Origin: a bacterium ADurb.Bin157
GTDB taxonomy: Bacteria; Muiribacteriota; Ozemobacteria; Ozemobacterales; Ozemobacteraceae
DNA length: 64,000 bases
Assembly: GCA_002070375.1 (NCBI GenBank)
Contig: MWDD01000013.1
Span: forward strand, 369-64,368
Direction: 5' to 3'
The translations under genes were made by a program, and so were the position numbers. Positions 10,161-43,601 of the stretch are shown here, piece after piece. Numbering within the stretch: position 1 is the stretch's first letter; each line of letters opens with the position of its first letter. The notes under the pieces were generated by a model. The model was given only the letters and a program-made list of their open reading frames with translations. It made no database searches and was not told the DNA's origin.

Positions 10161-10168
10161 CAAAAAAA

Positions 10169-10711: not shown

Positions 10712-12640
10712 ATGTTTTTGTTTAAAAATCTTTCGCTGAAATTAAAAACCCTAAGAGTACTAATCCCCAAGAGAGACCTAATAATTCTTTTTATTATGTG
10801 GTTCTTACTTGGTTATTTTTTTATCTTTTATCCTATTTTAACAAAAAATATTGATTATGAAATTATAGATAAAAAAATCAAGGTTAAGTCTCAATTCTTA
10901 AAAGACAACTTCAAAACAGATATACTCTTAGTGTCTATTGACAGCGAAACACTTTCAGAAACAGAGCATAAATGGCCATGGCCACAAGAGCATTGGGCTA
11001 AGATCATTAATGACATTAAAGAGAAAGGTAAGCCAAAAGCAATAATATTAGACATCTATTTTCAGGAAAGCAAGACAGAAAAGCCCCCCGAAAGCTTTAT
11101 TAAAGCTGTCAAAGCCCAAAGCAACACAGGCCTTGTCGCAATTTATGAAGAAAATGAAACCACCTTTGGAAAACAGATACTTATATCGCCACCGATAAAA
11201 GAAATTGATGAAGCTGCCGCATTTACGGGAATTTCTCAACAACCTATTGATGATGACGGCAAAATTCGAACAATGATATTGCATGATAAAAGAATCAATT
11301 ATAAGCATATAGCTATAGAGCTTTTAAATAATTGTAAAATTGATATTCCTAATTTATCTGTTTTTTCTGATATTCAAACTCCGGTAGCTTTGCTCGACTT
11401 TCCTGTTTCTTACAGAGGCTTAAATCAAATTAGCATAAATGATTTAAAAAACGACGATCGCAATTACGAGTTTTTAAAAGACAGGATTGTCATAATCGGT
11501 GCCACCGCAAGCATCTTACATGATTATCATCAGACTTCTATAGGTTTGATAAGCGGCCCCGAAATAATATGTAATACTGTTGAAACACTGGGCAGTTCGT
11601 TTCTTCAACTTCTGGACGATAGTATTTCAAACAGAATAATACATTACTTAGCCGGAGTTCTGATTGTAATGTTATTCTATTCAGATCTATTTAAACAAAG
11701 CTCCAAACAAGTATTAATTATATGGCTGATGCTGCCGGTTTTTTTATTTTTTTATTCATACTTTCCCAAAGCGCATCCCCCGATTGAATTAACATGGCTC
11801 GGGTATACAGCTACAGCCGCATTATTTGTGCTAATGATTCGAATTATTGAATTGGCCGACATAAGAGAACAATTGACAGAAGCAAGTATTTGCAGCGATT
11901 TCCAAAAAGGTCTTTTTCCTGAAAAAGGCTTAACAGACGAAAGCGGCATTTCGTGCTACGGCACCTGCATACCATATCAAAACGCAGGAGGAGACTATTA
12001 CGACTTCTTTAAGCTCAAAAACGGCAATATCTTTTATATTTTATGCGATGTAAGCGGCCATGGGATTTCCGCAAGTATGATTACGACTGTTGTGAAAAGC
12101 TTAGTAGTCATAGAAACTACGAATGATAATTTTAATATAGACAGTCTTTTCAATAAAATAAACTATGCCGTTTTAAATTTAACAAAACGAAAAAAAATGG
12201 TAACGATTGTTGGGGGAATCATCAACACAAAAAATTATGAAGTTTCAATTTCTTCTGCCGGTCATATTCCGGCAATTTTAAAACACGGCAATGGTTTTGA
12301 AGAAATAGCTCTACCCGCATATCCTCTCGGAGTTTACTCCACCGAAAGATTAAAAAAGGCTCAAACAGTTATAAAATTAGAAAATTTTAATAAACTTTTT
12401 TTCTATTCAGACGGTATAATAGAGGCAAGAGATTGGAACAACCAAGAACTGGGCTTTGATTCATTCTATAATGAAATAAACAATCTTCCCGAGATCGCAA
12501 ACAGTGAAGAATGTATCAAAATATTACTGAATAAGTTAAAGGAACATACAAAAGGCCGCGATTTTGTTGACGATGTATCATTATTGGTAGTAAGCTGTAG
12601 ACGTAAAGACGCTAAAAAGGAGACAAAAGAGAGTGATTAA
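10712..12640 (+). CDS. CHASE2 sensor domain / PP2C (SpoIIE-type) Ser/Thr phosphatase membrane protein
   Basis: TM1, then an extracytoplasmic domain with the WPWP motif and the RIVIIGATASILHDYHQTSIGLISGPEIICNTVETL stretch of CHASE2, then three TMs, then PP2C motifs (GGDYYDFF, LCDVSGHGISASM, YSDGIIEAR). Confidence 0.7.
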   Translation: MFLFKNLSLKLKTLRVLIPKRDLIILFIMWFLLGYFFIFYPILTKNIDYEIIDKKIKVKSQFLKDNFKTDILLVSIDSETLSETEHKWPWPQEHWAKIINDIKEKGKPKAIILDIYFQESKTEKPPESFIKAVKAQSNTGLVAIYEENETTFGKQILISPPIKEIDEAAAFTGISQQPIDDDGKIRTMILHDKRINYKHIAIELLNNCKIDIPNLSVFSDIQTPVALLDFPVSYRGLNQISINDLKNDDRNYEFLKDRIVIIGATASILHDYHQTSIGLISGPEIICNTVETLGSSFLQLLDDSISNRIIHYLAGVLIVMLFYSDLFKQSSKQVLIIWLMLPVFLFFYSYFPKAHPPIELTWLGYTATAALFVLMIRIIELADIREQLTEASICSDFQKGLFPEKGLTDESGISCYGTCIPYQNAGGDYYDFFKLKNGNIFYILCDVSGHGISASMITTVVKSLVVIETTNDNFNIDSLFNKINYAVLNLTKRKKMVTIVGGIINTKNYEVSISSAGHIPAILKHGNGFEEIALPAYPLGVYSTERLKKAQTVIKLENFNKLFFYSDGIIEARDWNNQELGFDSFYNEINNLPEIANSEECIKILLNKLKEHTKGRDFVDDVSLLVVSCRRKDAKKETKESD

Positions 12641-14157: not shown

Positions 14158-14198
14158 ATGGTTGCCCCAAAATATGGGCAACCATTTTTTTATGCTAA
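14158..14198 (+). terminator. Rho-independent terminator-like hairpin
   Basis: ATGGTTGCCC-caaaatat-GGGCAACCAT followed by TTTTTTT, immediately after the stop at 14135. It lies inside the 5' end of the ORF-track call 14162-16291. Confidence 0.55.
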
Positions 14199-16291: not shown

Positions 16292-16715
16292 CAAAAGCGG
16301 CATATCATTAATTGAAATAGTAGTTGCTATCGGTTTATTAGCAGCTGTTTTGGCTCCGGTATTTTTAATTTTTTCATCGGGCAACCGAAATATGGAAATG
16401 ACAGAGGCAGAGTTCAGAGCACATAATTGCGCTATAGAAATAATGGAACAAATCATTTCTCTTCCTTACAAACATATAAAATCCGGCACCTATACAAGCT
16501 CTGACGTTAAAAATGGCTTAAATTTCGCGAATTCTGCAATACTCTATAAAATCAGTGAAAACTATGAATCAGAACTCAAGGTAGAAGATATGAAAGAAAA
16601 GGGCAAAAGTATTTTTAAAAAAGTCAGCGTGAAAGTATCATATCAAGCGACCAAAAACTCTGCATCAAAGCGCAGCTTTACAATTAAAACTATGGTTGCA
16701 AATGAAACAAACTAA
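16284..16715 (+). CDS. Prepilin-type (pseudopilin-like) protein
   Basis: MNSKSG|ISLIEIVVAIGLL: leader ending in Gly, Glu at +5. Confidence 0.7.
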   Translation: MNSKSGISLIEIVVAIGLLAAVLAPVFLIFSSGNRNMEMTEAEFRAHNCAIEIMEQIISLPYKHIKSGTYTSSDVKNGLNFANSAILYKISENYESELKVEDMKEKGKSIFKKVSVKVSYQATKNSASKRSFTIKTMVANETN

Positions 16716-17238
16716 AAAAGCCTTCACATTGGTTGAAATTATAGTTGTGTCAGCAATATCCGCAGTTTTTATAACTACGGTTGTAATGCTGTTGATTAAT
16801 TTCAGAAAAGGTTATTCTAAAAGTGAATACAGCGGAATTCTTATGCAAGAAACAGCTCTTTTAATTGCTCACCTCAGAACTGATCTTAACAATGCGGTTG
16901 ACAAACAGATTTACACTTCAGAGAATCAGCTTATGTTTAACGCCTACAATAACAGCAAAGGAATAACAGAACCAATTGTTTACACCCTCGAAAAAGCCCC
17001 CCAAGGCCGTATATTAACAAGAAAAGAGGGTAACGGAAAAGCGCGCACAATTGTAAAAAGCAATGTTGCCTCATTGACATGGCAAACAAGTTTAGATGTA
17101 TATGAAACGAAGCCTGTTCCCGTAAAGAGATTAAGCATTGATTTAGATATTCTATTAGAAGCACCGAACATGCCTGAGAAAAGCTTTCGCCTTAGAAGTG
17201 CCATATTTCCGAATAGAGTGAATAAGCAAATCAATTAA
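16696..17238 (+). CDS. Prepilin-type (pseudopilin-like) protein
   Basis: MQMKQTKKA|FTLVEIIVVSAI: Ala rather than Gly at -1, Glu at +5. Confidence 0.65.
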   Translation: MQMKQTKKAFTLVEIIVVSAISAVFITTVVMLLINFRKGYSKSEYSGILMQETALLIAHLRTDLNNAVDKQIYTSENQLMFNAYNNSKGITEPIVYTLEKAPQGRILTRKEGNGKARTIVKSNVASLTWQTSLDVYETKPVPVKRLSIDLDILLEAPNMPEKSFRLRSAIFPNRVNKQIN

Positions 17239-17432
17239 TAATGAGGCGGCTTTTCGCAATGAGGTCTGTCCTCTTCAAGAGGGGAAAGAGGTATTTTCCC
17301 TTCTAAATGTGACAAATGCTTTTTCAAGCGATCTATTATTTGCTGTTGTTCAATAACTACATTATTTAAGTCTTCAATATATCTTTCGAGGTAAATAATT
17401 CTTTTTTCAATTTCAAATAATCTGTTTTCCAT
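17235..17432 (-). CDS. slyX: SlyX family protein
   Basis: MENRLFEIEKRIIYLERYIEDLN... is a coiled coil ending PPHY, as in SlyX. The ORF track extends to 17453 (MRQKRKK-). The start is uncertain. Confidence 0.55.
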   Translation of the reverse strand: MENRLFEIEKRIIYLERYIEDLNNVVIEQQQIIDRLKKHLSHLEGKIPLSPLEEDRPHCEKPPHY

Positions 17433-20400
17433 TTTTTTCCTTTTCTGCCTCATTAGCTACAAGGTTATTATTAAAAACCAAAATAACCAGCGTCATATCG
17501 TCTTCAGGGTCGTTATTCTCAGTATGAAGCTTGTATTTGTTATATATATTATTATAGAACAAAGCCGGATTAATATCATAAGAATCAGCTATAATCTTTT
17601 GGAATTGTGAGTATCCAAGGTCTTCACCCGCAGTATTTCTGGACTCAATTATTCCATCAGAATAAAAAATTACTGCATCGCCTTGTTCTAACTCAAATGA
17701 TTTTTCGGTATAGACAGTTTTTTTAAATGCTCCCAGTACCGGCGAAGCAAACTTAAGCTCTTCAACTTCATTAGTCTTCTTTCTGTAAATATATGGTGAA
17801 CAACCTCCTGCGTTTGCATAGAGTGCCTTCCCCTCTTCACTGTTAAATACCACATATTGGAATGTCATAATTTTTCTTTGCTGCTTATTTTTTGACTGCA
17901 AAATCAGTTGATGCAAGAGATTTAATATTTTTTCCGGTGAATTTTGATATTCCTCACTACACAGAATACCTGCTTTCGCCATAGCCATAATTAAGGCAGC
18001 ACCTATTCCGTGCCCGGCCACATCACCAATTAAAGCCGCAAAATATTTATCATTGATTTGAAAATAATCAAAATAGTCTCCTCCTATAGCGCTCATGGCA
18101 ATACTTTTTCCATATACGGCAAAAGAGTTATGGAAAAAACTTTCCTTGGGAAAAAGACTCTCTTGAACAACTTTCGCGGTTTCAACTTCAGCTAAGCCAA
18201 CCATTATGTTGTTAAATATATTTCCCACTTCTCCGAATTCATCTTTATCCAGATTAGTGATTCTATGTGAAAAATCTCTGTTTTCTATTGCTATTGCCCC
18301 TTTTTGCAACTCGCTTAAGGGTTCTAAAAAACTTTTTGCAAGTATTTGAGCCAAACTGATGGCTAAAACAGTATTTAATAGTACATACAGGGTCAGCTCT
18401 GTTTTCTGCTTTCCGATAATTTTTTCTGCATTTTTAATTGGATAAAGGCCTATCAGCCTGTAGGCATTTAAATACTCGCCGTTAAAAGCCACAATAACGT
18501 AATCTTGGCCATTATAATTAATAAATTCGATTTCTTCTGACTGTGATTTCCCTGTTTTTTTAACATAGTCAATAAGGACATCGTTTTCATCTTTAATATT
18601 TCCAAAAAATTCACGTGTCGCCAAATTATAGACAACAAGTTTAATATTATGTTCATTTCTGTTGGCATCAAATAAAGATGTTTTAAGAAAATCAGCTTGC
18701 AGGCGATTACCTAACCATAAACACACCAGTGCATAGTCTAATTTATCGGGCGTATGAACCGGCACAAACTTAAAATAAGTCATGTTTATATTTTTTTCAA
18801 AACCCCAAGGTTTAATATCATCAACATTAGTCATCAATCCATTTGTTATCTCAATAAAATTAAGCTGCAATAAAGATTCTGCCACGAGTTCTAACCTTGC
18901 GACCAAATGTCTCGGCAACTCTTTGCGATTCAAATCACCAATAATTTTTTTGGCAACTAAGTTGAGTAATTTTAATTCATCATAAGCATACTTCGATAAA
19001 GTTCTGTTAAATGTGCTTTTTTCTTTGTCGAGGACAGGGTTATCAATCGAGCCTTTGTAGTATATAAAACCGTCGCTTGAACCGACATAGCTGGTTTCGC
19101 TGCCAATTACATAAGATTTATCCACATACATATTATCAATCAAATATTTCATGGAATCGCTATTAAATTGTTTATCAAACCCATTTTTTTTAACGTGCTC
19201 TCCCCATTTTTTATAGAATTTATCTAAATCAAAACAAATATTCTTTAAAAACGATCTAAATTTTCTGTCATAGCTTTTCAAAGCATCATTTGTCATGTTC
19301 TGAGCCGATGAAATCAGCACATGTCTCTTATGAATATTATGCTCATTTGAAATCATGATCATGGCAACCAATGGAATTCCGGTTGAAAACCAAAAAAGGA
19401 AAGCGAGCTTTAACCTAATTGAAAACTTTCCGGGTATTTTGTAAACAATGCTTCTCCAAGTGTAAAATAAAAACGGTAACATTACTAAACCGTAAATTAC
19501 AGCACCAAACAGAGAATATAGGTTAATAATTTTATCAGAATATTTTCTTTTTACAGATGTAATGAATCTGAACTCGGGAGATATGTAGCTATAACCATAG
19601 TATCTGTCAGGATCTAAAACAAAATCGCTCTTCAATTTTTCGAAATTTTCAATTAGTGTATTATCAAAAATATCATCAAGACTTTTATTGTTAACCCAAA
19701 GATTCTTTTTATTATCTCGGCAATCCACTATTCCGACACTTATATCCGGATATGTGTTTTTAGAGTTTTTAACTATATATTTCAAAGATGTGAAATTTTT
19801 AAAAATATCATAATTAAAAAATATCAGAACCATAGCATTTTCTAATGCGTAAGCGGCGAAAGGAGGTTTTTGCATCGCACTGTCAGCCCAAGCCAGGGAA
19901 AAAGATACCGCGTCTCTTGTTCCAACTAATGCATCTTCGATTATCTGCGGCCCAAGTATTTTTTTACTGCGATCTAAATCTACTCTGCCCCTTAGTTTTG
20001 AATAATGTATTCCATTTGATGCAAAATATGGGGCATAATACAAAAGAATATCATGAACACTTTTCCACTCAGCCTCGTTGTATTCGGTCTCAAATGTTTT
20101 ATCCTGAATTTTTCCTGATGAATTCCAAACAATAAAGTCTATTTCATTATCAAAAGCTTTTTTTTGATTATGCATCCAAGTAATCAAAGGGCCTACCGTT
20201 ATATTTTTACTGCCTAGTTTTGCAAAGTTTTCATAAAAGAATCTACCAAAGAAATCCTCTTCATTTTTTGCCTGTTTAGCATTATTGATTAATTGTTGAT
20301 GACGCATTTTATAATCAAAAAGACTATTTTGTTCGTCCATAGTAAAGTATCTGTTTATAGCAAAAAATGACAAAACAGCCGGAATACCCACAAGGAATAT

Positions 20401-20469
20401 AGCCATGAGTATCCAAGCAACAAGGGACCTAATTGAATACGTATTATAGTTTTTATTTTTACTATTCAT
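17413..20469 (-). CDS. Membrane sensor phosphatase with two periplasmic domains, HAMP and a PP2C (SpoIIE) domain. Paralog 1.
   Basis: 1018 aa. Hydrophobic segments at about aa 17-38, 315-335, 350-370 and 690-710. HAMP-like linker (LSELQKGAIAIENRDFSHRI...EFGEVGNIFNNIM). PP2C motifs (GGDYFDYF, IGDVAGHGIGAALIMAM, YSDGIIESRN). Confidence 0.75.
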   Translation of the reverse strand: MNSKNKNYNTYSIRSLVAWILMAIFLVGIPAVLSFFAINRYFTMDEQNSLFDYKMRHQQLINNAKQAKNEEDFFGRFFYENFAKLGSKNITVGPLITWMHNQKKAFDNEIDFIVWNSSGKIQDKTFETEYNEAEWKSVHDILLYYAPYFASNGIHYSKLRGRVDLDRSKKILGPQIIEDALVGTRDAVSFSLAWADSAMQKPPFAAYALENAMVLIFFNYDIFKNFTSLKYIVKNSKNTYPDISVGIVDCRDNKKNLWVNNKSLDDIFDNTLIENFEKLKSDFVLDPDRYYGYSYISPEFRFITSVKRKYSDKIINLYSLFGAVIYGLVMLPFLFYTWRSIVYKIPGKFSIRLKLAFLFWFSTGIPLVAMIMISNEHNIHKRHVLISSAQNMTNDALKSYDRKFRSFLKNICFDLDKFYKKWGEHVKKNGFDKQFNSDSMKYLIDNMYVDKSYVIGSETSYVGSSDGFIYYKGSIDNPVLDKEKSTFNRTLSKYAYDELKLLNLVAKKIIGDLNRKELPRHLVARLELVAESLLQLNFIEITNGLMTNVDDIKPWGFEKNINMTYFKFVPVHTPDKLDYALVCLWLGNRLQADFLKTSLFDANRNEHNIKLVVYNLATREFFGNIKDENDVLIDYVKKTGKSQSEEIEFINYNGQDYVIVAFNGEYLNAYRLIGLYPIKNAEKIIGKQKTELTLYVLLNTVLAISLAQILAKSFLEPLSELQKGAIAIENRDFSHRITNLDKDEFGEVGNIFNNIMVGLAEVETAKVVQESLFPKESFFHNSFAVYGKSIAMSAIGGDYFDYFQINDKYFAALIGDVAGHGIGAALIMAMAKAGILCSEEYQNSPEKILNLLHQLILQSKNKQQRKIMTFQYVVFNSEEGKALYANAGGCSPYIYRKKTNEVEELKFASPVLGAFKKTVYTEKSFELEQGDAVIFYSDGIIESRNTAGEDLGYSQFQKIIADSYDINPALFYNNIYNKYKLHTENNDPEDDMTLVILVFNNNLVANEAEKEKNGKQII

Positions 20470-23371
20470 TATTAATAACCATTACAGTAAAGTCATCATC
20501 AGGTTTTGCAGACCATTCATCGTATTCAGCATAGATATTATTATAAAACTTTTCAGGGTTTCGATCATACAGTCTCGGCAATACTCTTTTCAGTCGTTCA
20601 AAAGTATATTCTTCTCCCTCTTCATTCTTGGCTTCGGCAATTCCGTCTGTATATAGAATCAGAGAGAGACCTCTTTCCAGAACAAAGTCTAAATTCTTAT
20701 ATCGAGCTTTTGGGCCTATTCCTAAGGGAGTTCCTATATGCTCAACAAATTCTGCGGAGTTATTTTTTGGATCAACAATAATTGGAAAGCAATGGCCTGC
20801 ATTAGCGAAACAAAAAGCATTTTTATGTGGCTCAACCGTAAAATATTGGAAAGTCATCATTCTTTTAAGCCTATCGTTTTTAATTGCAAAAAACATCTTA
20901 TGCAATCTTGTTGTCAGAAGTGAAGGGTCTGACTTTTCTTCTTCTGACGCTGTAATTACTCCCGCTTTAGCCATTGCCATCATTAAGCCGGCTCCAACTC
21001 CATGGCCGGCAACGTCTCCTATTAAAACCCCCCATTTTCCTTCATTAATTTTAACCACATCATAATAATCTCCGCCGAGGGTTGTCATCACTATATTTTG
21101 AGCATATACAGATAAGTTTTCGAGTTTAAATTGGTTTCCAGGCAAAAGACTTTCTTGAACAACCTTTGCCATCTCAAAATCTGCCAATCCTTCTATTACG
21201 CGATTAAAAACCTGGTTAACATGTCCAAATTCATCTTCGTCTGTTATCGGAATTCTATGTGTATACTGTTGATTTCCAACCGCAATAGTTCCTTGTCTTA
21301 AATTATTAATGGGTGTAATAAACTGATTTATCAGAACCTGGCCCAAAACAATTGTTAAAATCATACTAATAAAAGCGCACATCAATATAAAATCACGCAA
21401 ATTATCAACCCGATCCTTCAACTTTTCCATTGGATAAGTTGCAGCCAATAATATATTATTGAGATTTATGCCTCTTGAAATTACTGTCAAGTAATAGTTC
21501 ATCCCTATTCTGACAGGCAGAGTTTTTGATTCAGAAAAACTATTGAGTGTTTCCATATGTTTTAGCAAAACCGGAGAAAAAGTTTTAGAAGGCGACTTTC
21601 GGTGCCTTCCATCAAGAGAAGCGGTATAAAACTGTATATTTTTATCATCACCGGCATTTTTAATGTAATATCTGTCTACATACAATTGTTGAAATCTATT
21701 ATCATCCCACGACATATAGAGTAAATAATTATTTTTGTAAGTTTCTTTTTCACCAATCATAAATGTATATGAAAGTCTTTCACTGCTTCCCATATTCATT
21801 GTTTTTACTTGCCGAACATTTGTAAAAGATTTTCGCACCACGTCAGAGTTTTCAGGATCAAGAATTTTTGAAAACATATCTTCTGAGGGTTCAAAAGGGA
21901 AGCCATTTGAATAATTCAAAATAGCCTTGGCAAAAGCCTTATAAAAAGATAAATCTATTTTTTGATGTTTGCTTATGTCTCTGTAGGCATATAGTTGCTT
22001 GCTGTCACTGGCAAATAAAGCAAGTTCAGAAGGTTCAAAAGAGGCGGCAAAACTGCCAATTTCTTCTACAGATTCATCACTCAGAGTATTCGCTTTATTC
22101 TCTTTATTAATTTGATCGAGTTTTTCGTTAAGCTTATATGAAAACTCGTATTTTAAAGATTCAAATCTGCTATCAAAATCTCTGAGTTTTCTTGACAGAT
22201 TTGATTTGGTTTCTTCATAAATAGTTTCTTGAGCAACATTTAAATAATCGTATGCAATAAATCCCAGGATAGACAAAGGTATTAGATTTGCCAGCATAAA
22301 TATAAAAGTCACTTTCCAGGAAATTGATACAAAAGTGCTTCTGAAGTTTATTGTCAAATAGATTGTTGCGTATAAAATAAAAAGCAACACCATTATCTGG
22401 TAAAATTTAGTTGTATGCTTTACTTCTCTCGACCATATTTTCTCTTCTTTTGGATAGATACAAAACGCTCTGAGCTCAGGCTGCGGCATTGTCAAAAGAG
22501 CCAAAATCTCGTCGTCTTCATAGAATGATTCACCTGATTTTTCAAATTTTGCCAATGCCATTTTTAGTGAATTTTTGTATTCTATCGGAATTTTTGTTTT
22601 AGGCTCAGAATAATCATCCGAGGTTGAATAGCCGCAAACATAAGCTAATTCTTTATTATTTAAAGCCTTAATAATTTTTTTTAAAGTAAAATTAGATTCG
22701 GTAATAGCACGAGAAAAAAAACACATAAAGCTTACTTTAGAATCTAATCGATACCAGACATACGAATATTGGCCTCCTAAGTCGGTCAAGATAGGCCCTG
22801 CGTCTTCTCCCCTTAGGTATGGTTTTCTGAGATGATCCGGGATTATTATTTTACCAAGCAATTGTCTAATAATGTTAATATTTGATGAAACGCTTGCAAG
22901 CGCCGAAATATTTGACTTTGGATCATCGCTTATTGTAGCTACCACTTCTTTTAAAATTTCATAAACGCGCTTCATAGCATAATAAAAGGTTTTTTTATCT
23001 GTTAAGTCTCTGACCACTTCTCCGGATTCGTCCCAGACTATAAATTCCATAACATTGGGATAGTTTTGTCGAATATTATTAATAGCAGGTTTCAGATATT
23101 TCAAAGGCTCCGGTGATTTATTTGCTATATTTGAAATTTCGGTCAGTAAAAAATGAAAATATCTGCTGTTAGTGCTATATTTTTCAACATATTCCAGTTT
23201 ATTTTTCATTTTTTCTTGGGCTTGGTTTCTTTTTAAGGTTGTTGAAATTTCATATTGTCTGTCAAGCAAAGAAAAAATGATCAAACTTGGGAATAAGAAA
23301 TATGAAAAAAAGTAAACAAAACCTGTGAGAATCTTGTTCATTAGTTTATTGCAACCTATCTCTGATGCCAT
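20462..23371 (-). CDS. Membrane sensor phosphatase with two periplasmic domains, HAMP and PP2C. Paralog 2.
   Basis: 969 aa with the same architecture (IGDVAGHGVGAGLMMAMAKAG, YTDGIAEAKN). 8-nt overlap with the downstream paralog. Confidence 0.75.
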   Translation of the reverse strand: MASEIGCNKLMNKILTGFVYFFSYFLFPSLIIFSLLDRQYEISTTLKRNQAQEKMKNKLEYVEKYSTNSRYFHFLLTEISNIANKSPEPLKYLKPAINNIRQNYPNVMEFIVWDESGEVVRDLTDKKTFYYAMKRVYEILKEVVATISDDPKSNISALASVSSNINIIRQLLGKIIIPDHLRKPYLRGEDAGPILTDLGGQYSYVWYRLDSKVSFMCFFSRAITESNFTLKKIIKALNNKELAYVCGYSTSDDYSEPKTKIPIEYKNSLKMALAKFEKSGESFYEDDEILALLTMPQPELRAFCIYPKEEKIWSREVKHTTKFYQIMVLLFILYATIYLTINFRSTFVSISWKVTFIFMLANLIPLSILGFIAYDYLNVAQETIYEETKSNLSRKLRDFDSRFESLKYEFSYKLNEKLDQINKENKANTLSDESVEEIGSFAASFEPSELALFASDSKQLYAYRDISKHQKIDLSFYKAFAKAILNYSNGFPFEPSEDMFSKILDPENSDVVRKSFTNVRQVKTMNMGSSERLSYTFMIGEKETYKNNYLLYMSWDDNRFQQLYVDRYYIKNAGDDKNIQFYTASLDGRHRKSPSKTFSPVLLKHMETLNSFSESKTLPVRIGMNYYLTVISRGINLNNILLAATYPMEKLKDRVDNLRDFILMCAFISMILTIVLGQVLINQFITPINNLRQGTIAVGNQQYTHRIPITDEDEFGHVNQVFNRVIEGLADFEMAKVVQESLLPGNQFKLENLSVYAQNIVMTTLGGDYYDVVKINEGKWGVLIGDVAGHGVGAGLMMAMAKAGVITASEEEKSDPSLLTTRLHKMFFAIKNDRLKRMMTFQYFTVEPHKNAFCFANAGHCFPIIVDPKNNSAEFVEHIGTPLGIGPKARYKNLDFVLERGLSLILYTDGIAEAKNEEGEEYTFERLKRVLPRLYDRNPEKFYNNIYAEYDEWSAKPDDDFTVMVINNE

Positions 23372-23376
23372 ATTTT

Positions 23377-26286
23377 TTATTCCGGGTTAAAAACCGCAAC
23401 AATGATTGTTAAATCATCGCCGGCCGAAACACTTCCGATATATCCCAAATAAGCCTTATATATATTATTATAATAAATTTCAGCATTATTATCCCATGAA
23501 TCCAATAATATTTTCTTCATTCCGTCATAACCGAGTTCAATATCGGCTTCATTTCTGGATTCAACCAAGCCGTCAGTATAAAAGACAATGGCGTCACCCG
23601 GATTAAATTTAATATTTATCTCTTCATAAGTAGCCCTTTTAAAGGCTCCCAATGCTGCTCCCGCAAGGGTCAATTCTTCAGTCTTGTTTTCGTTTTTCCT
23701 AACAATTATCGGAGAACAGGCACCCGCATTACTGTATACTCCGGTCCCATCGGTAGAATTCAAACAAAGGTATTGAAAAGTCATAATTTTCTTTTGCTTT
23801 TTTGTTTTTGATTCCAATATTAGTTGATGTAATCTTAAAACCAGTTCTCTTGGTTTTTCCCAGTAGTTTTCAGATTGAATAATTCCGGCTTTTGCCATTG
23901 CCATGATAAGGGCGGCCCCCACCCCATGCCCGGCAACATCGCCGAGAAGTATTCCAAAATTATCGTTACTCACAGACAAATAATCAAAATAGTCTCCGCC
24001 TAATTGGCTTTTTGAGATGCTTTTTCCGTATACCGAAAAGTTTTTTGCAGAATAAACATTATCAGGAAGCAGCTGAGTTTGAATTGTACCTGCCACAGAC
24101 AATTCGTCAAGATCAACCATAACTTCGTTAAATATTTGTCCCATTGCTCCAAATTCATCATTCCCCAAATTGGGTAATCTATAATCAAAGTTATTGTTAG
24201 AAATGGCCATTGCCGCTTCTGTAATTGAAAACAATGGTTTTATAAACGAAGATGCCAAAATCTGAGATAGGGTTAATGTTAATAATAAACTCAAAACGGC
24301 AAAAACAATCAGCTGTTTTCTCTGTTTAGTAATAATTTTATCTATTTCTTTGAGCGGGAAAAGCCCCATCAGCTTAAATTCAGAGACGTGCTTTCCGTTA
24401 AAGCCTATTATTAAGTGGGGTTCACCGAGATAGTTAACAATCTTAAGCTCTTTGCTCGGATAAGAAGTCAGTGTTTGAGCAAAACCTCTTAAATCTTGAT
24501 TTTGATAGCTTTCAGGAGGAATAGCATAATCGCTGCTTTCGAAAGCAACTATTTTAATACCGATGTCATTTCTGTTTGCTTGAGGTATAGCCTCTTTTAA
24601 ATAGTCAAATTGAAGGTCTGTAGACTCATATCTCCCCATAATAAAGTAGTCTTGTTTGTCACTCGTGCTATCAAGTGCAAAGGTATCTATCACGCTCAAA
24701 AACACTGTTTGTCCGAAACCGAACATCAAAAACTTACCTCTTGAGCTTAATAGGTCATACAAAACATTGTAGGCGGATTTTCTTGTAACAGATTCCACAA
24801 GGAGCTCAATCTCAGTTTCGTCTTTTTCAGAAATTCTGGTATTGTTTATTTTAGCCAAAAAATATCTGCCAATTTTATTAATTACTTCGCCTTGTTTAAT
24901 ATCGTCTTCTTTAATTTTTTTATATTCGTACAAAACTTTTCGACCTTTGACAAAGGCAAGTTCAGAGGCAACTATATCACTGTCGCTGGCAACAAGGAGT
25001 GTTGTGTTGACAAATCCGCCTAAATCATCGTAAAAAGTACGCATGACCGGCATTGTCAGATTATTTTCACTAATATTTTTAATTAAACTTGTCTTTGCTT
25101 TTTCTTTTTGAACGAGTTTTTTAGCATATCTAAGTTCCATTTTTTCGTCCAGGTCTTGAATAAATTCAATTCCGAGATCTCTTTTTTCTCTTAACAAATC
25201 AGCACGTTTTTGCGCTAAATAATCCAAACCAATAAATAGCAAAACTAGTATTGGCAATGCATTTGCGAAAAAGAACAAAAATCTTAATTTCAATTTAATC
25301 GAAACCTTATCAGGCTTTTTGTCGATATAAACTCGCCAAGCATATCTTGCAAAACACACCGCATAAATTGTTAACAAAGCCAGCATAAAAGCGAAAATTA
25401 TGTATGTTTTTGTATTTTGCTCGCGGTTTTTACTAATATATCCGAGAAGTGTAATATCAGGCCTGATATACATAGGAAATACATAATAATTTTCTGTTTC
25501 TATATTTTGCGTTTTAATTTCTCTGTATTCTTTAAGCGAATTAATTAACTCAAGCGACACATTTTCTGCGTCCGGTTCATCCTTTTCATCAAACATCACA
25601 AAATTAACGTCTTTATCGCCTTTCCAATATTCATTTAAATAACCTCTGACCCCTGTTTTATTATAAAAACTCTCATAATCGATAAAAACAAATATTAGAT
25701 ATTTTCCGTTAATTGCCACCCAAAATATAGGTTTTTTAAAAGAGCTGTCAGGCCAGACCAAATACAGATCATCTTTTCCGTGACTTTTGTCTAAATGGTC
25801 AAAATTCAGCTGCGGACCTAATATTTTTCCGCATGTTCTAAGCTCTGCCAAAGAAAAATCAGATTTACTTGAGCGAAAGGCTTTAAATATAGTTGATACA
25901 ACGAGTCGCCAATCGTTTTTATCTTTAACAATTCCGGAGTCTTCGACAATTTGATTGGTATTGTTGGCAATCACATAATCAAACTCAAGAGTTTCTTTAA
26001 GCTTTTTTATTCGAGCTTTAATTTTATCTAGCTCAAAAGGCTCTCTCACATTCGGAGGTCTTAAAGCAGAGTTTAAAACAACACACCAAAATTGTTGAGG
26101 GTCAGAAAACTTTTTAATTTCACTGTAAAACTTTTTTATTTCTTCTGAGTTAGCCAATATATTTTTCTTATTTTGATTCTTAACAAAATACTTATATCCC
26201 CCAAAAGTCATTAAAAATGGAATTCCTACAAAGCATATTATTAAAGTTAACCAATAGAAAAATTTATTAAATGTTATTTTAATCAT
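23377..26286 (-). CDS. Membrane sensor phosphatase with two periplasmic domains, HAMP and PP2C. Paralog 3.
   Basis: 969 aa with the same architecture (LGDVAGHGVGAALIMAMAKAG, YTDGLVESRN). Confidence 0.75.
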   Translation of the reverse strand: MIKITFNKFFYWLTLIICFVGIPFLMTFGGYKYFVKNQNKKNILANSEEIKKFYSEIKKFSDPQQFWCVVLNSALRPPNVREPFELDKIKARIKKLKETLEFDYVIANNTNQIVEDSGIVKDKNDWRLVVSTIFKAFRSSKSDFSLAELRTCGKILGPQLNFDHLDKSHGKDDLYLVWPDSSFKKPIFWVAINGKYLIFVFIDYESFYNKTGVRGYLNEYWKGDKDVNFVMFDEKDEPDAENVSLELINSLKEYREIKTQNIETENYYVFPMYIRPDITLLGYISKNREQNTKTYIIFAFMLALLTIYAVCFARYAWRVYIDKKPDKVSIKLKLRFLFFFANALPILVLLFIGLDYLAQKRADLLREKRDLGIEFIQDLDEKMELRYAKKLVQKEKAKTSLIKNISENNLTMPVMRTFYDDLGGFVNTTLLVASDSDIVASELAFVKGRKVLYEYKKIKEDDIKQGEVINKIGRYFLAKINNTRISEKDETEIELLVESVTRKSAYNVLYDLLSSRGKFLMFGFGQTVFLSVIDTFALDSTSDKQDYFIMGRYESTDLQFDYLKEAIPQANRNDIGIKIVAFESSDYAIPPESYQNQDLRGFAQTLTSYPSKELKIVNYLGEPHLIIGFNGKHVSEFKLMGLFPLKEIDKIITKQRKQLIVFAVLSLLLTLTLSQILASSFIKPLFSITEAAMAISNNNFDYRLPNLGNDEFGAMGQIFNEVMVDLDELSVAGTIQTQLLPDNVYSAKNFSVYGKSISKSQLGGDYFDYLSVSNDNFGILLGDVAGHGVGAALIMAMAKAGIIQSENYWEKPRELVLRLHQLILESKTKKQKKIMTFQYLCLNSTDGTGVYSNAGACSPIIVRKNENKTEELTLAGAALGAFKRATYEEINIKFNPGDAIVFYTDGLVESRNEADIELGYDGMKKILLDSWDNNAEIYYNNIYKAYLGYIGSVSAGDDLTIIVAVFNPE

Positions 26287-29176
26287 ATTTAATTATTACC
26301 AATGTTAAATCGTCGCTACTGGTTGGAGACCAGTCTTTGTAAGCACCAAAAAGAGCCTCATAGTAAAGCTCTATGTTTTCATTATAGCTTTTTTTCAGCA
26401 ATTCAGAAAATCCGTTAAAGCCCAAGCTTTCTCCGTCGGTATTGGCTGCTTCAATGATTCCGTCAGTGTATAAAAACATTATATCGCCGGGGTTAAACAC
26501 ATCTTCTTTAGTCTCGAGCTTTGCTTTTTTAACAACCCCAAGCGGCATACTGCCCTCGAATTCTACAAAGCGTGTTTCATTACCGCCTTTTTTTACAATT
26601 ACCGGATAACAGTGACCGGCATTTGCTATTTTGTACATACCGGTTTGAGTATCTACGCTCAAATATAAAGTTGTCATCATTCTTCTAATTTTCATTTTAT
26701 TCAATGCTCTTATACATTCATGAATTTTAAGAAGAAGTTCTTCGGGTGTTTCTCTTTCTGTTTTAGCCATTATTACCGAAGCTTTTGCCGCTGCCATAAC
26801 AAGTGCGGCGGGAACACCATGGCCTGAAACATCTCCCATTAATATTCCGACATTCAAGTCGTCCAACTCGAAATAGTCGAAATAGTCGCCGCCTAATCTG
26901 GTCATTGTCACCGAACGTCCAAAGACCTTGAGCTTATTTTTGTTTAAATTTTCTTGTGGAAACAAGTTTTCTTGAACTGTTTTAGCAACTTCCAGCTCTT
27001 CAAGACTTTCTATTGCCGTGTTAAAAGCATTTCCAAGTAACCCGAATTCATCTTCCGAGTTAATTGGAATACGATGCCTGAAGTTTTGTTTAGCAATTGC
27101 AACTACTCCTTTTTGAATCTCAGAAACGGGATCCATAAATTGATTGGAAAGTCCGAGCGCTATTCCGGAAACAAGAATAATACTTAATAAAGCAAATATA
27201 ACCAATTTCAATAAAACATCATTAATCACAGATTCGATTTTATCAAGTGGAAATAATCCTACAAAGGCAACTTTATCAAGAATTTTACCGACAGTACCAT
27301 AGGCAAGATATCTTTTACCTTCATAAGTAACTTCTTCTTGTCTTATTTCCGATAAATTAACCGCCTGTCTTAACAAGACATCCAAAGATTGTTCTAATTC
27401 AAAAGTTTTACCGGTCTTAATGTAACTTGCTCCGTTAGAAATAATTCTTGCGAAGCATTTAATTTGGGCAAAATTGTTGCTTATATCGCTGATATTTTTC
27501 TTCAAATATTCTTCTTGTAAGCTCTCTATTTGCCAAATAACAGCTACCCCGTGCTTAAAAGCTTTATTCTCAAAGTTTCCTAAAAGGTTCCAATAATATT
27601 CAAAATTATCTTGAGCCATTTTTTCTGAGGTTATGCGTCTCATTTTATTAAGAAATTTATGTAAAACTACTTTTTGGAAAGCAAACATTTTTCCGGAATC
27701 ATCAATCCCGGGTTTAGCCAGCTTAAAAATATGTTGCGGCGAATAATCTTTAATAGCAAGGTAATCAATCAAATCTTTGAAAATGGCCTCTAAAAATACC
27801 GTTCCTTTTCTATTATTTCTTTTTGAATACTTAAATTCAGAATTGCTTATAAAACAGTCTTGTGCATTTAGTTTACCGGCCAAGTCAAAAATTTTCTGTA
27901 ATTCTTTTTCTCCATAGACGTTATTTTTTGCGTTAAGTTCATCTATAAGCTTATTAAGTTCGTTTGCGTATTCTGCTTTAATGTTTTCAAATTTATTATC
28001 AAAGTCTTCAAATAGTCCATATATGTCCTCGTAAGATGAATCAACCAAAAGGCTTCTCATTTGGCTCATGTATTCATATCCCGTAAAACCTAATATCAAT
28101 AAGGGCAACCCGTTTGCATAAACAAATAATAATGCAAGCTTCCAACGTATTGAAAAGAAAGAAGATTTTTTAAAAACCAGGTAATATACTAGTGTGCCAA
28201 TTAGTATAAGAATTAAGAGAACCAGTGTCATAACTGTATTGTATGCAGCTGAAGAATCAATATTCAGATATTCTTTGTTAATGTAGCAAAAGACTCTTGA
28301 AGCCGGTGTAAAAAGCTTAACCTGAATCAGATAATTATCAGTTTCCAGGTTTTTGTGCGAATAGTTTTCAAATTTAGCCAAAGCCACACGAATTTCGGGA
28401 ATAATTTTATTGTTTTTGCTATTTTTTTCAAACACATCCATAAAGCCGTATCGAACCGGAAATTCTTTGTCTGTGCTATTTCTATTCACTCCGTCAACAA
28501 GTTTTTTTAAGTAATCCAAAGAATTAATTGCAGAATCATTAATAAAAGCAAATAAACTTAATTCGTCTCCGATGCTATACCAAAAATAGGCCTTATCTGA
28601 CTTTGCTCCCGCTAACACACATTCTGCCAGATTCCCTGCCATCAAAGGCAGATTCAATTTTTCGGGAACAAGAAAGCCTCCAAGATATGTTCTGATTAAA
28701 TTCAATCTTTTAGAAACCAAATCAAGCGTCTCGGGATTACCCGGATAGTTTTCATGAGTGTCTTTTACCACAGCTTTAAAAACGTCATGAATGGTTCTGA
28801 TTATGTATCTATAGCCTTTTTCATCGGTAAGAGTTTCATCTATGTTTCCGGATTTATCCCAGACTACAAATGAAAAAGTTCCGGGGTTTCTCTTGTTGAG
28901 ATGCTCTAATGCGTCTTTTAAATAAGCTAATGGTTCAGGAGTTTTGTGTGCAATTTCGAATATTTTTTTTAAGAGGGCGTGATAGTAAAATTTGCTGTTA
29001 CTGTATCTGGTAATCTTCTCAATTTTTTTATCCAACTTTAAATAGGCGGCTTTTTTATTGACCTGAGAGCGCGTCTCAAGCATTGTTTCGAGGCCGACAT
29101 CAAGAAGAAGAAGGGGGAACAAAAAGAAGCAAAACAACACCCCGCCCCAAAAAAGATATGGCCACCTTCTTTTCAT
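26279..29176 (-). CDS. Membrane sensor phosphatase with two periplasmic domains, HAMP and PP2C. Paralog 4.
   Basis: The ORF track gives 26279-29245 with a TTG start. The probable start is the internal Met (MKRRWPYLFWGGVLFCFF...) just before TM1. PP2C motifs MGDVSGHGVPAALVMAAAKAS and YTDGIIEAAN. Confidence 0.7.
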   Translation of the reverse strand: MKRRWPYLFWGGVLFCFFLFPLLLLDVGLETMLETRSQVNKKAAYLKLDKKIEKITRYSNSKFYYHALLKKIFEIAHKTPEPLAYLKDALEHLNKRNPGTFSFVVWDKSGNIDETLTDEKGYRYIIRTIHDVFKAVVKDTHENYPGNPETLDLVSKRLNLIRTYLGGFLVPEKLNLPLMAGNLAECVLAGAKSDKAYFWYSIGDELSLFAFINDSAINSLDYLKKLVDGVNRNSTDKEFPVRYGFMDVFEKNSKNNKIIPEIRVALAKFENYSHKNLETDNYLIQVKLFTPASRVFCYINKEYLNIDSSAAYNTVMTLVLLILILIGTLVYYLVFKKSSFFSIRWKLALLFVYANGLPLLILGFTGYEYMSQMRSLLVDSSYEDIYGLFEDFDNKFENIKAEYANELNKLIDELNAKNNVYGEKELQKIFDLAGKLNAQDCFISNSEFKYSKRNNRKGTVFLEAIFKDLIDYLAIKDYSPQHIFKLAKPGIDDSGKMFAFQKVVLHKFLNKMRRITSEKMAQDNFEYYWNLLGNFENKAFKHGVAVIWQIESLQEEYLKKNISDISNNFAQIKCFARIISNGASYIKTGKTFELEQSLDVLLRQAVNLSEIRQEEVTYEGKRYLAYGTVGKILDKVAFVGLFPLDKIESVINDVLLKLVIFALLSIILVSGIALGLSNQFMDPVSEIQKGVVAIAKQNFRHRIPINSEDEFGLLGNAFNTAIESLEELEVAKTVQENLFPQENLNKNKLKVFGRSVTMTRLGGDYFDYFELDDLNVGILMGDVSGHGVPAALVMAAAKASVIMAKTERETPEELLLKIHECIRALNKMKIRRMMTTLYLSVDTQTGMYKIANAGHCYPVIVKKGGNETRFVEFEGSMPLGVVKKAKLETKEDVFNPGDIMFLYTDGIIEAANTDGESLGFNGFSELLKKSYNENIELYYEALFGAYKDWSPTSSDDLTLVIIKYD

Positions 29177-29258
29177 AATCACTCTACTATTTAATATCTC
29201 ACTCAACACACCCATTCTAACACATGTAATGGCTGTTAGCCACAAAACACTTAATTAG

Positions 29259-29267
29259 TGGTATAAT
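29259..29267 (+). promoter_or_regulatory. Extended -10 promoter element TGgTATAAT upstream of nnr
   Basis: TGGTATAAT lies about 30 nt upstream of the nnr ATG, in the divergent intergenic region. Confidence 0.4.
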
Positions 29268-29298
29268 AAATTTACAAACAGTGAGCAAAGGACATCAT

Positions 29299-31841: not shown

Positions 31842-32360
31842 TTATTTATATTCGGCGGCGACATTTACAATCGCTTCAAACTCGTTTGATTCTAACCAAG
31901 CATCAATAAAAAAGACAGGATACTTTTGATTTTCAATTACCGCGTATCTGAAACATTTTTCACCCAGTCTGCCTTCGCCCGGCAATGGTTCTACTATTCC
32001 CTCTTTGAATCTATACTCGATTCTGTCAGCAACAAACCCCACGTATACAGCGTGCTTAATTGTTAACAACAAAAGTCTTGAGTTTTCATCAATAACATAA
32101 TTTTTTTCTAAGTTAATTCTGTCTCTAATGTTTACAACAGGGACAACCGTACCTCTAATATTAACCACTCCGACAAGGTAAGGTTCTCCCGGGACCGATA
32201 CAATAGCTCCGGGAATGACCACTTCAGTAATATCCACAACCGGAATAACAAAAGTTTTATTCCCGAATTTGAACATAAAGAACTTTTCCAGCCTTCCGTC
32301 TCCGGGATTTTCGCTGTTATTTTGAGCTATCCTTTTAAACAGTGGGATAATTTGTGACAT
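31842..32360 (-). CDS. cheW: CheW-like chemotaxis coupling protein
   Basis: 172 aa single CheW domain (FVIPVVDITEVV..., LVGVVNIRGTVVPVVNIRDR). Confidence 0.65.
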   Translation of the reverse strand: MSQIIPLFKRIAQNNSENPGDGRLEKFFMFKFGNKTFVIPVVDITEVVIPGAIVSVPGEPYLVGVVNIRGTVVPVVNIRDRINLEKNYVIDENSRLLLLTIKHAVYVGFVADRIEYRFKEGIVEPLPGEGRLGEKCFRYAVIENQKYPVFFIDAWLESNEFEAIVNVAAEYK

Positions 32361-43407: not shown

Positions 43408-43601
43408 CGGTTATACTCCGTACATAGTCTATATTGTTTAAGAGTATAACAAAAAAGTGTAAAAATGTGAACTGCGCCCTCTAAAAGTTTCGTAAAATGA
43501 GCAATCTAAGGTCTGAAAGTATATAGAATTAGTTTTGTGCGCTTGCCTTATAATTAGGTCTGATGTATAATCAGAGACAAATTACAATACCGGAGCAGAA
43601 A

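Follow-up and report, generated by a model that had tools for sequence, protein, structure and literature searches.

Four consecutive minus-strand genes in the window (the whole 64-kb stretch of DNA that was analysed) encode sensor phosphatases of two ancient subfamilies, A and B, which form a strictly ordered two-gene unit that is present there in duplicate. The four genes are thus arranged A-B-A-B and were designated A1, B1, A2, and B2. The A-B unit is almost confined to the candidate phylum Riflebacteria, and its fixed order suggests that the two proteins act jointly as a single sensor with two subunits. On balance, we favour a reading in which A and B form a heterodimeric HAMP-PP2C sensor phosphatase, two such sensors are encoded in the window, and the substrate phosphoprotein is encoded elsewhere.

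The four-gene array and its products

The initial annotation had described four minus-strand ORFs with two 8-nt overlaps, and the ORF list together with direct reading of the sequence placed them at exactly the same positions. The array and its immediate flanks consist of the following features:

29281-30852, plus strand: nnr/yjeF (Pfam)
29246..29280, no strand: intergenic region between A1 and the divergent nnr (yjeF), the sole non-coding gap upstream of the four-gene block
26279..29245, minus strand: A1 (A-type, cassette 1), 988 aa from TTG; HAMP at aa 699-750, PP2C at aa 797-987
23377..26286, minus strand: B1 (B-type, cassette 1), 969 aa; HAMP at aa 677-722, PP2C at aa 774-964
20462..23371, minus strand: A2 (A-type, cassette 2), 969 aa; HAMP at aa 680-729, PP2C at aa 777-966
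17413..20469, minus strand: B2 (B-type, cassette 2), 1018 aa; HAMP at aa 710-754, PP2C at aa 807-997
17235..17432, minus strand: slyX-like gene, 65 aa, coiled-coil (Pfam SlyX, 61 bits); 20-nt overlap with the 3' end of B2

The start codon of A1 is uncertain, as ATG codons at 29215 and 29176 are plausible in addition to the TTG at 29245, and a gene caller assigned 978 aa to its counterpart on a 99%-identical contig (L001). Within each cassette, the stop codon of A overlaps the ATG of B by 8 nt; these overlaps read ATGATTAA for A1/B1 (26279-26286) and ATGAATAG for A2/B2 (20462-20469). A gap of 5 nt (23372-23376) was read directly between the B1 stop and the A2 start. The slyX-like gene is probably the last gene of the operon, and the array also ends in a slyX-like gene in L001, L026, L021, L014, and L079. 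Since no other non-coding gap precedes the four genes, the 35 nt at 29246..29280 are presumed to contain their promoter. A scan for consensus promoters did no better than chance (56 promoter-like sites vs. 50 expected), and a terminator scan was uninformative (14 terminator-like sites vs. about 8 expected).

Pfam detected HAMP (PF00672; 30-41 bits, cutoff 25) and SpoIIE/PP2C (PF07228; 111-131 bits, cutoff 25) domains in all four proteins, with the HAMP match beginning within a few residues of TM4 in each case. Hydropathy analysis revealed four hydrophobic segments per protein at homologous positions; four TM segments combined with a cytoplasmic HAMP-PP2C imply that two loops, one of about 280 aa and the other of 285-320 aa, are extracytoplasmic. 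Based on hydropathy and on AF2 models built from shallow alignments (10 and 23 sequences), the predicted order is a cytoplasmic N-terminus, TM1, loop 1, a TM2-TM3 hairpin, loop 2, TM4, HAMP, a helical linker, and PP2C. The turn of the TM2-TM3 hairpin is predicted to be short, basic, and cytoplasmic. The HAMP-PP2C architecture with two periplasmic domains that had been proposed at the outset was therefore borne out for all four proteins by Pfam and the analysis of TM segments.

The motifs GGDYxD, GDVxGHG, DG, and DDxT are invariant across the four window proteins, and across the family the catalytic Asp/Gly motifs show conservation of 90% or more in A as well as in B. Both subunit types are accordingly predicted, from these intact motifs, to be catalytically complete PPM/PP2C (SpoIIE-type) Ser/Thr phosphatases. 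Loss of a catalytic Asp had been raised as a possibility, but all Asp motifs are present in the four proteins and a pseudo-phosphatase assignment was ruled out. The full-length AF2 model of A2 had a pLDDT of 80.6, and a Foldseek search with it returned the PP2C domains of P. aeruginosa RssB, Rv1364c, SiaA, RsbX, and SpoIIE (E 1e-8 to 1e-13).

The N-terminal ~680 aa of the four proteins gave no Pfam match. Across paralogs and relatives, this sensor region (aa 1 to about 680) matched neither the Cache models (dCache_1, sCache, and related models) nor any other Pfam model, and it had no sequence relative in the PDB. Both loops are tentatively predicted by modelling to adopt a Cache/PAS-like fold, and loops 1 and 2 are internal duplicates that arose from duplication of a TM-plus-sensor unit.

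Pairwise identity of the four proteins was 21-30% overall. By region, it was 11-29% in loop 1, 12-20% in loop 2, 31-44% in TM4 plus HAMP, and 37-52% in PP2C, in agreement with an earlier description of diverged sensor regions beside conserved PP2C cores. As synonymous sites are saturated at this level of identity, per-domain identities and comparisons of ortholog sets were used in place of dN/dS. DNA repeats across the region were only 26-62 nt long with 63-85% identity, and mapped to motif-coding stretches. These values bear on whether the array was duplicated during assembly or by a tandem event that took place very recently in one lineage, an explanation that has nothing to recommend it except the equal gene sizes and head-to-tail order. 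The low protein identity and the short, weak DNA repeats argue against an artefact, and near-identical copies, which the initial annotation had named as a warning sign, were absent. In addition, the same array occurs on the independent contig L001 (99% identity) and, with the same A-B-A-B-slyX order and conserved flanking synteny, in a more distant relative (L079, ~53% identity). Orthologs of cassette 1 with 45-47% identity occupy the first position of their arrays in at least eight other genomes, and cassette 2 is closest to the second cassettes of those same arrays. Because both cassettes of the window are matched in other genomes by cassettes at equivalent places in the array, the duplication is old. 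An artefact or recent event is thus refuted by low identity, independent contigs, and distant orthologs, and we regard it as scarcely conceivable.

Two subfamilies in a fixed-order unit

Relatives of the array were poorly recovered by word-indexed protein searches, which returned 8 sequences with a single A-type query and 9 with a 10-sequence profile. A B-type query and an exhaustive search, which covered 1.84 billion representative proteins, were needed; the latter yielded about 600 family clusters at 50% identity, with about 400 cluster representatives at E of 1e-10 or better. Its best 150 matches separated cleanly by type (89 A, 60 B, and 1 S, S being the singleton type), and almost all of these were 935-1020 aa, the length of the full architecture, or shorter. 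When 10 relatives were scanned with Pfam, all full-length ones possessed HAMP and SpoIIE domains; the shorter ones ended after HAMP and were fragment-like. Full-length relatives were located in Riflebacteria MAGs, and an affiliation with Leptospira, considered on account of the low GC and numerous PP2C genes, was discarded. When 124 full-length family members from 75 loci were clustered, 52 were assigned to A, 52 to B, and 16 to the S type, whose members occur singly. In each array, that of the window included, A and B alternated with A upstream.

A was found directly upstream of B in all 43 non-redundant cassettes from Riflebacteria MAGs, and the same order held in six more cassettes on three independent metagenome contigs (49/49 in total). 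In 41 of the 43 MAG cassettes, the ATG of B was positioned between -20 and +13 nt relative to the stop of A, with modes at -4 nt (15 cassettes) and -8 nt (7 cassettes). Junctions from B to the next A ranged from -65 to +283 nt or contained kb-scale insertions. The numbers of A and B genes per MAG were equal within one, reaching 6 A plus 7 B. Matrices of A-A and B-B distances were strongly correlated (Mantel r = 0.959; permutation maximum 0.17), which indicates that cassettes duplicate as units, and the nearest-neighbour cassette was the same for A and for B in 34 of 43 cases. The initial annotation had proposed repeated tandem duplication; descent of four equivalent paralogs from one gene in this way is not supported, as there are two ancient subfamilies and the A-B pair is the unit of duplication.

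The two subfamilies also differ in which sensor loop is conserved. In 97-100% of comparisons, A showed the higher conservation in loop 1, and in 89-93%, B showed the higher conservation in loop 2. Constraint is therefore reciprocal, with loop 1 held in A and loop 2 held in B.

Proposed pairing of A and B and its alternatives

HAMP acts as a dimeric four-helix bundle. In the heterodimer that we favour, the two A-then-B cassettes and the slyX-like gene would be transcribed as one operon, and translational coupling may supply A and B in roughly 1:1 amounts. Contacts between the subunits would lie in the TM bundle, in the HAMP four-helix bundle, between the crossing helices of the linker, and at an alpha-helical interface of the PP2C domains, as has been demonstrated or predicted for homodimeric RsbU, SiaA, and other HAMP-PPM proteins. 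The resulting complex would display four non-equivalent extracytoplasmic sensor modules. Ligand signals would pass via HAMP and the linker to the phosphatase dimer, turning it on or off, and the dimer would dephosphorylate a pSer/pThr protein encoded elsewhere, the likeliest candidates being an anti-sigma antagonist of the STAS type or a switch protein resembling SiaC. If A and B share one complex, the locus encodes two sensors rather than four, and these two may have different ligand specificities. Sensing of many distinct cues by the array, as originally suggested, is plausible.

A bolder version of this reading, to which we assign a little under an even chance, holds that the heterodimer is obligate, that labour is divided among its Cache-like modules, and that the unit has been amplified to seven or more cassettes per genome as the main input system of one Riflebacteria lineage. 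Under such a division, the conserved loop 1 of A and loop 2 of B may serve a shared ligand, a co-receptor, or an interface, leaving loop 1 of B and loop 2 of A free to diversify.

The main competing explanation is that the window encodes four independent homodimeric sensor phosphatases, with A and B being old lineages that are kept adjacent, co-expressed, and feed the same pathway without forming a mixed complex. Two inputs converging on one phospho-substrate would be an example. Known HAMP-PP2C and PPM sensors are homodimeric, full catalytic motifs are retained in both A and B, and the S-type relatives stand alone, so the fold presumably works without a heterologous partner. Moreover, comparison of A with B revealed no position with opposite class-fixed residues at ≥85% in both subfamilies, i.e., no fixed complementary residues. 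A search for complementary or opposite charges in HAMP, the linker, and PP2C alpha1 gave partial tendencies only (A2 positions 727, 730, 736, and 764) and no interface evidence. The Mantel correlation is explicable by co-inheritance alone; together with the conserved order it proves co-inheritance of the pair, not contact, and two co-regulated homodimers would give the same signal. On the other hand, the absence of a single exception to the A-then-B order in 49 cassettes is hard to explain by functional convergence alone. The 4- and 8-nt start/stop overlaps are prevalent within pairs and not between pairs, A and B counts per genome are near 1:1, and the relaxation of loop 1 in B and of loop 2 in A resembles a division of labour inside one complex. 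Taken together, we consider independent homodimers a credible explanation, with a probability of about a third.

The reciprocal loop constraint could also be accommodated if one member of the pair works as the phosphatase and the other serves mainly as a co-sensor or scaffold with dispensable, pseudo-enzyme-like activity. PP2C and HAMP are indeed better conserved in B than in A (mean PP2C identity of 48% vs. 38-39%). This arrangement is improbable, however, given that the metal-binding and catalytic motifs are conserved at 90% or more in both subfamilies and do not vary among the window proteins.

Possible partners, known systems, and significance

The initial annotation counted a CHASE2-PP2C gene as a fifth SpoIIE-type gene and reported that partner-switching genes were absent nearby. 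Pfam confirmed the former, which gives five such genes within 18.5 kb:

10712..12640, plus strand: CHASE2-SpoIIE phosphatase gene (Pfam); context only, outside the A/B family

This gene belongs to a different operon on the plus strand, together with FecR and pseudopilin-like genes, and its product did not match the sensor profile of the A/B family. The absence of partner-switching genes likewise stood, as Pfam scans of the 64-kb window (essentially all non-nested ORFs ≥90 aa) detected no STAS, HATPase_c_2 (RsbW), or sigma-factor gene, and thus no RsbU-type partner-switching module at the locus. The same scans revealed no siaB, siaC, or siaD genes in the window. Analysis of neighbouring genes across related loci found no gene family consistently beside the cassettes, so guilt by association gives no substrate. 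A STAS gene lay within 10 kb at only 1 of about 35 A-B loci (L028), and STAS or RsbW-like genes were close to some S-type singleton loci. STAS proteins and an RsbW-like (HATPase_c_2) kinase are encoded in other Riflebacteria, within 4-6 kb of some family members.

Among characterized proteins, P. aeruginosa SiaA resembles the window proteins in being membrane-anchored and in combining a sensor region with HAMP and PP2C, and its PP2C domain (PDB 6K4E) was among their best structural and sequence matches. Among named models, NCBIfam SiaA scored highest for three of the four proteins; scores for this equivalog (NF038263) were 45-58 bits against a cutoff of 700, with only the C-terminal, PP2C-containing part of the model matched. 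For SpoIIE sensu stricto (TIGR02865, equivalog), no score exceeded 39 bits (cutoff 490.8). The SiaA PP2C domain dimerizes with itself through alpha-helices, both in the crystal and in solution, and SiaA acts on a small switch protein and not directly on a sigma factor (PMC7647112). SiaA differs from the window proteins in having two TM segments, one periplasmic region, and a single gene for a homodimer, as opposed to four TM segments, two putatively Cache-like loops, and an obligate A/B gene pair. Furthermore, the SiaA operon carries the kinase SiaB, the substrate SiaC, and the cyclase SiaD, whereas the window cassettes have no kinase or substrate gene nearby.

The periplasmic domain of Chlamydia trachomatis RsbU is Cache/PAS-like, and we know of no paired paralog described for this protein. 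One report describes it as a TM sensor phosphatase with an extracytoplasmic sensor and a cytoplasmic PP2C that controls an RsbV/RsbW partner switch (PMC11619594), features in which it resembles the window proteins. It differs from them in that one gene encodes it, it has only one periplasmic domain, and its RsbV and RsbW partners are known. B. subtilis RsbU and RsbP share the SpoIIE/PPM catalytic fold with the window proteins, but they are cytoplasmic, homodimeric, and regulated by RsbT and RsbQ, and lack both a membrane or extracytoplasmic sensor and A/B pairing. An "exchangeable toolkit" has been proposed for PPM phosphatases, in which a sensor-domain dimer controls a phosphatase dimer via crossing helical linkers; dimers are the active or predicted form of RsbU and HAMP-PPM proteins, and the latter are explicitly predicted to follow the crossing-linker mechanism (PMC12143880). 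The dCache and sCache sensors TlpB, KinD, WalK, CitA, and dCache chemoreceptors have 5-12% identity to the window sensor regions. Known Cache receptors carry one loop between two TM helices, in contrast to the two separate sensor loops within one polypeptide of the window proteins.

Heterodimeric ABC exporters offer an analogy, as their adjacent paralogous half-transporter genes have a fixed order, overlap, and are co-inherited, like the A/B pair. They belong to an unrelated protein family and serve only as a precedent for inferring heterodimers from gene arrangement. The window itself contains such a pair:

45608-47350 and 47331-49172: adjacent ABC half-transporter genes

The literature searched on Riflebacteria with phosphatase, and on PP2C heterodimers or paralogs, contained nothing relevant.

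HAMP-linked PP2C sensor phosphatases are widespread, and very few have been studied. To our knowledge, every one of these is a single-gene homodimer, and an A/B heterodimer, if true, would be the first RsbU/SiaA-class sensor phosphatase to be heteromeric. Our analysis defines a phylum-restricted family with three unusual features: two separately inserted, putatively Cache-like loops per polypeptide, a constant A-to-B pairing, and amplification of the pair as a unit. For annotation, a heterodimer would mean that A and B genes should be counted and named as pairs, and that gene count is no guide to the number of signal inputs. If A and B do form a heterodimer, they would provide a natural system for asymmetric signalling via HAMP and the PP2C dimer switch, in which sensor repertoires grow through duplication of a two-gene module. 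These results point to PP2C-based signalling as a major input route in uncultured Riflebacteria.

Genes and domain organization of the array

Four minus-strand ORFs proposed in the initial annotation were recovered at exactly their coordinates. They belong to subfamilies A and B of one family of HAMP-PP2C membrane sensor phosphatases and lie in the order A-B-A-B, forming two A-then-B cassettes.

26279-29245, minus strand, A1 (cassette 1), ORF of 988 aa measured from a TTG start
23377-26286, minus strand, B1 (cassette 1), ORF of 969 aa
20462-23371, minus strand, A2 (cassette 2), ORF of 969 aa
17413-20469, minus strand, B2 (cassette 2), ORF of 1018 aa

Alternative ATG starts for A1 occur at 29215 and 29176, of which 29215 was chosen by the gene caller on a 99%-identical related contig, L001. 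The two 8-nt overlaps predicted earlier were both present when the sequence was read directly, as ATGATTAA at 26279-26286 (A1/B1) and ATGAATAG at 20462-20469 (A2/B2). Both are located within A-B pairs, and the junction between the pairs (B1-A2) is a 5-nt gap. Identity among the four proteins was 21-30% overall, ranging from 11-29% in sensor loop 1 and 12-20% in sensor loop 2 to 31-44% in TM4 plus HAMP and 37-52% in PP2C. DNA-level repeats were confined to short motif-coding stretches and assembly duplication was therefore excluded.

A 65-aa slyX-like coiled-coil gene (17235-17432, minus strand) directly follows the last B gene. It occupies the same spot in L001 and in the related loci L026 (1436-1630), L021 (7643-7837), L014 (21974-22165) and L079 (18857-19051), usually overlapping the stop of the last B gene. 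Apart from L001, which is the window's own lineage, four distinct lineages carry it at 48-89% identity. The product may act as a small accessory subunit, or the gene may be just a passenger conserved in the operon.

HAMP and SpoIIE/PP2C domains scored above Pfam thresholds in all four proteins, identifying them as HAMP-containing SpoIIE-type PPM phosphatases, and the Pfam scan found no match in the first ~680 residues of any of them. The PP2C domain is nearest to those of P. aeruginosa RssB, Rv1364c, SiaA, RsbX and SpoIIE. Its metal-binding motifs are invariant across the four, ruling out pseudo-phosphatases with a missing catalytic Asp, and the catalytic motifs are retained throughout both subfamilies. 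Hydropathy analysis found four TM segments in each protein, at positions that correspond among the four, with a short, Lys/Arg-rich TM2-TM3 turn. Because HAMP and PP2C are cytoplasmic, the two loops of ~280 and 285-320 aa (loop 1, TM1-TM2; loop 2, TM3-TM4) were assigned to the outside of the membrane. AF2 models of full-length A2 (pLDDT 80.6) and of the B1 sensor region (pLDDT 83.6, pTM 0.61) were reasonably confident, and in them each loop opens with a long helix that runs on from the preceding TM and leads into alpha/beta modules. Profile-profile comparison aligned TM1 plus loop 1 with TM3 plus loop 2 (94% probability, E = 1e-7, 274 columns), indicating that a TM-plus-sensor unit was duplicated internally to give the dual-loop topology. 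One protein from the sensor-region search, P0115 (1415 aa), carries a Sel1-repeat N-terminal extension before the dual-loop sensor, HAMP and PP2C.

The A-B pair and a putative heterodimer

All family ORFs were extracted from 75 related loci, and on clustering the 124 full-length members fell into three groups: 52 of type A, 52 of type B and 16 of type S. A and B alternate in every array, the A gene invariably lying upstream of its B on the same strand. Measured from the A stop, the B ATG lay at -20 to +13 nt in 41 of 43 non-redundant cassettes, most often -4 (15 cassettes) or -8 (7 cassettes); B-to-next-A junctions measured -65 to +283 nt or were split by kb-scale insertions such as lexA-dinB. 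Six extra cassettes, on three metagenome contigs that had played no part in building the A/B/S classification, were likewise all A→B, and counts of A and B per MAG were equal within one (maximum, 6 A plus 7 B). Cassette 1 clusters with the cassettes that come first in the arrays of at least eight other genomes (45-47% identity) and cassette 2 is nearest to the second cassettes of those arrays (37-41%); the A-B-A-B arrangement itself is old.

Distance matrices for A-A and B-B over the cassettes were strongly correlated (Mantel r = 0.959; permutation maximum 0.17), and in 34 of 43 cassettes A and B had the same nearest-neighbour cassette. It follows that each pair duplicates and diverges as one unit, with no shuffling of partners. 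Of the initial proposal of tandem duplication and divergence, the diverged sensor regions are borne out, but repeated duplication of a single gene is not supported; the duplicating unit is the A→B pair. The loops are under reciprocal constraint: in 97-100% of pairwise comparisons loop 1 showed the higher conservation in A, and in 89-93% loop 2 showed the higher conservation in B, both family-wide and inside the cassette 1 ortholog group.

On balance, we consider it somewhat more likely than not that A and B together form one sensor phosphatase as a heterodimer, a proposal drawn from comparative genomics: the subfamily split, an invariant gene order with tight coupling, joint duplication of the pair, the near 1:1 ratio in genomes, intact catalytic motifs in both subunits and reciprocal loop constraint. 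It is quite possible, if somewhat doubtful, that they instead form two co-inherited, independent homodimers feeding one pathway; co-inheritance by itself accounts for the Mantel signal, and no fixed complementary residues were found between A and B, but homodimers sit less easily with an A→B order that has no exceptions, with overlaps placed inside the pairs and with the reciprocal relaxation of the loops. HAMP domains work as dimeric four-helix bundles. In the heterodimer, A and B would join through this bundle and a PP2C helical interface, ligand would drive switching of the phosphatase dimer, and the dimer would dephosphorylate a pSer/pThr switch protein encoded elsewhere. Such a PP2C interface was seen in the SiaA homodimer (PMC7647112), and a general proposal for RsbU-like and HAMP-PPM proteins invokes dimer assembly of this kind (PMC12143880).

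Distribution, S-type genes and neighbourhoods

Members of the family are rare, and their taxonomic range is narrow. When one genome per species was scanned, nearly all full-length relatives came from MAGs that carry the label Candidatus Riflebacteria, Rifleibacteriota or Ozemobacteraceae, with a few in unlabelled or probably mislabelled MAGs; matches in other phyla were limited to the PP2C part. The best genome match was 46% identical and the window's own lineage is thus absent from those species representatives. Full-length A-B arrays also appear under non-Riflebacteria labels in L010, L030 (Candidatus Avigastranaerophilus) and L036 (Erysipelotrichia), MAGs that have probably been mis-binned or wrongly labelled, since the distribution is otherwise strict. 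An exhaustive HMMER search of 1.84 billion representative proteins with the sensor region alone returned 596 matches at E ≤1e-3 and 201 at E ≤1e-30; almost all of the best 150 were 935-1020 aa or shorter. Among ten of those proteins scanned with Pfam, every full-length one combined HAMP with SpoIIE, and the shorter proteins ended after HAMP, as expected of fragments. Within this sample, then, the sensor module goes with this single output.

S, the third subfamily, shares the same architecture (L031, L032, L040, L042, L045, L047-L050, L052, L055, L056, L067). Its genes were solitary in the 75 loci, and S was the only type seen in the sample's Ozemobacter-type (Ozemobacter sibiricus-like) MAGs. 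The ancestral, homodimeric state may be what S represents. Riflebacteria do encode STAS proteins and an RsbW-like kinase, and these lie close to certain family members, for the most part S-type singletons; in L032, L047 and L049 a STAS or RsbW-like gene is within 4-6 kb of the S gene.

L001 and L079 (~53% identical) share the window's array and neighbourhood: lpxD, lpxC-fabZ, lpxA, rph, ham1, cheW, HAD phosphatase and DUF167 genes flank one end of the array, and slyX, pseudopilin-like genes and FecR flank the opposite end. No gene family was consistently linked to the cassettes among neighbours across related loci. lexA lies between or right after cassettes in L002 (7808-9612, with the IMS-family gene dinB beside it), L005, L007, L009, L011 and L080 (13073-13696), an odd position for the SOS regulator; inter-cassette gaps in L005, L007, L009 and L011 are ~2.3 kb. 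Downstream of one cassette lineage lies a conserved block that encodes FHA-GAF-GGDEF and DUF2325 proteins, an ECF sigma factor and a protein of ~330-340 aa (L002 15983-20719, L080 14205-18905, L022, L024, L025, L036). The block is not present in the window, and its genes are candidate downstream outputs, via c-di-GMP or the ECF sigma factor, for that lineage.

Other window genes and comparison with known systems

As the initial annotation had stated, no partner-switching component is nearby: a Pfam scan of nearly all non-nested ORFs of ≥90 aa across the entire 64-kb window found no STAS protein, RsbW-type kinase or sigma factor. The CHASE2-SpoIIE gene was confirmed at 10712-12640. This gene and a FecR gene are flanked by two weakly paralogous three-gene modules (7567-10696 and 14162-17238, plus strand), each encoding a ~710-aa protein without a Pfam match and two small proteins whose N-termini bear prepilin-type methylation motifs (BLASTP E = 2e-4 for the large proteins, 1e-3 for the 179/180-aa proteins). 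They look like a duplicated pseudopilin-associated system beside a sensor phosphatase. Further adjacent paralog pairs in the window are two overlapping ABC half-transporter genes (45608-47350 and 47331-49172, plus strand), probably encoding a heterodimeric exporter, and, upstream of them, two tandem GalT/HIT-like genes (43563-44606 and 44610-45611, plus strand). An LpxC-FabZ fusion gene (35495-36787, minus strand), also found in L079, lies in an lpxD, lpxC/fabZ, lpxA, ompH, bamA cluster. Orphan cheW (31842-32360, minus strand; its position beside ham1 and rph is kept in L079) and orphan cheR (1043-1903, minus strand) were the only chemotaxis genes within the window.

In working principle the A/B proteins are closest to SiaA and chlamydial RsbU, but by NCBIfam they are neither SiaA nor SpoIIE equivalogs, and no partner-switching module is encoded locally with the array. 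Literature on Riflebacteria phosphatases and on PP2C heterodimers or paralogs yielded no description of dual loops, A→B pairing or cassette amplification. Set against described systems, the new features are three: the predicted, internally duplicated dual Cache-like loop topology, the obligate pairing of A→B genes, and amplification by whole cassettes, restricted to one candidate phylum.
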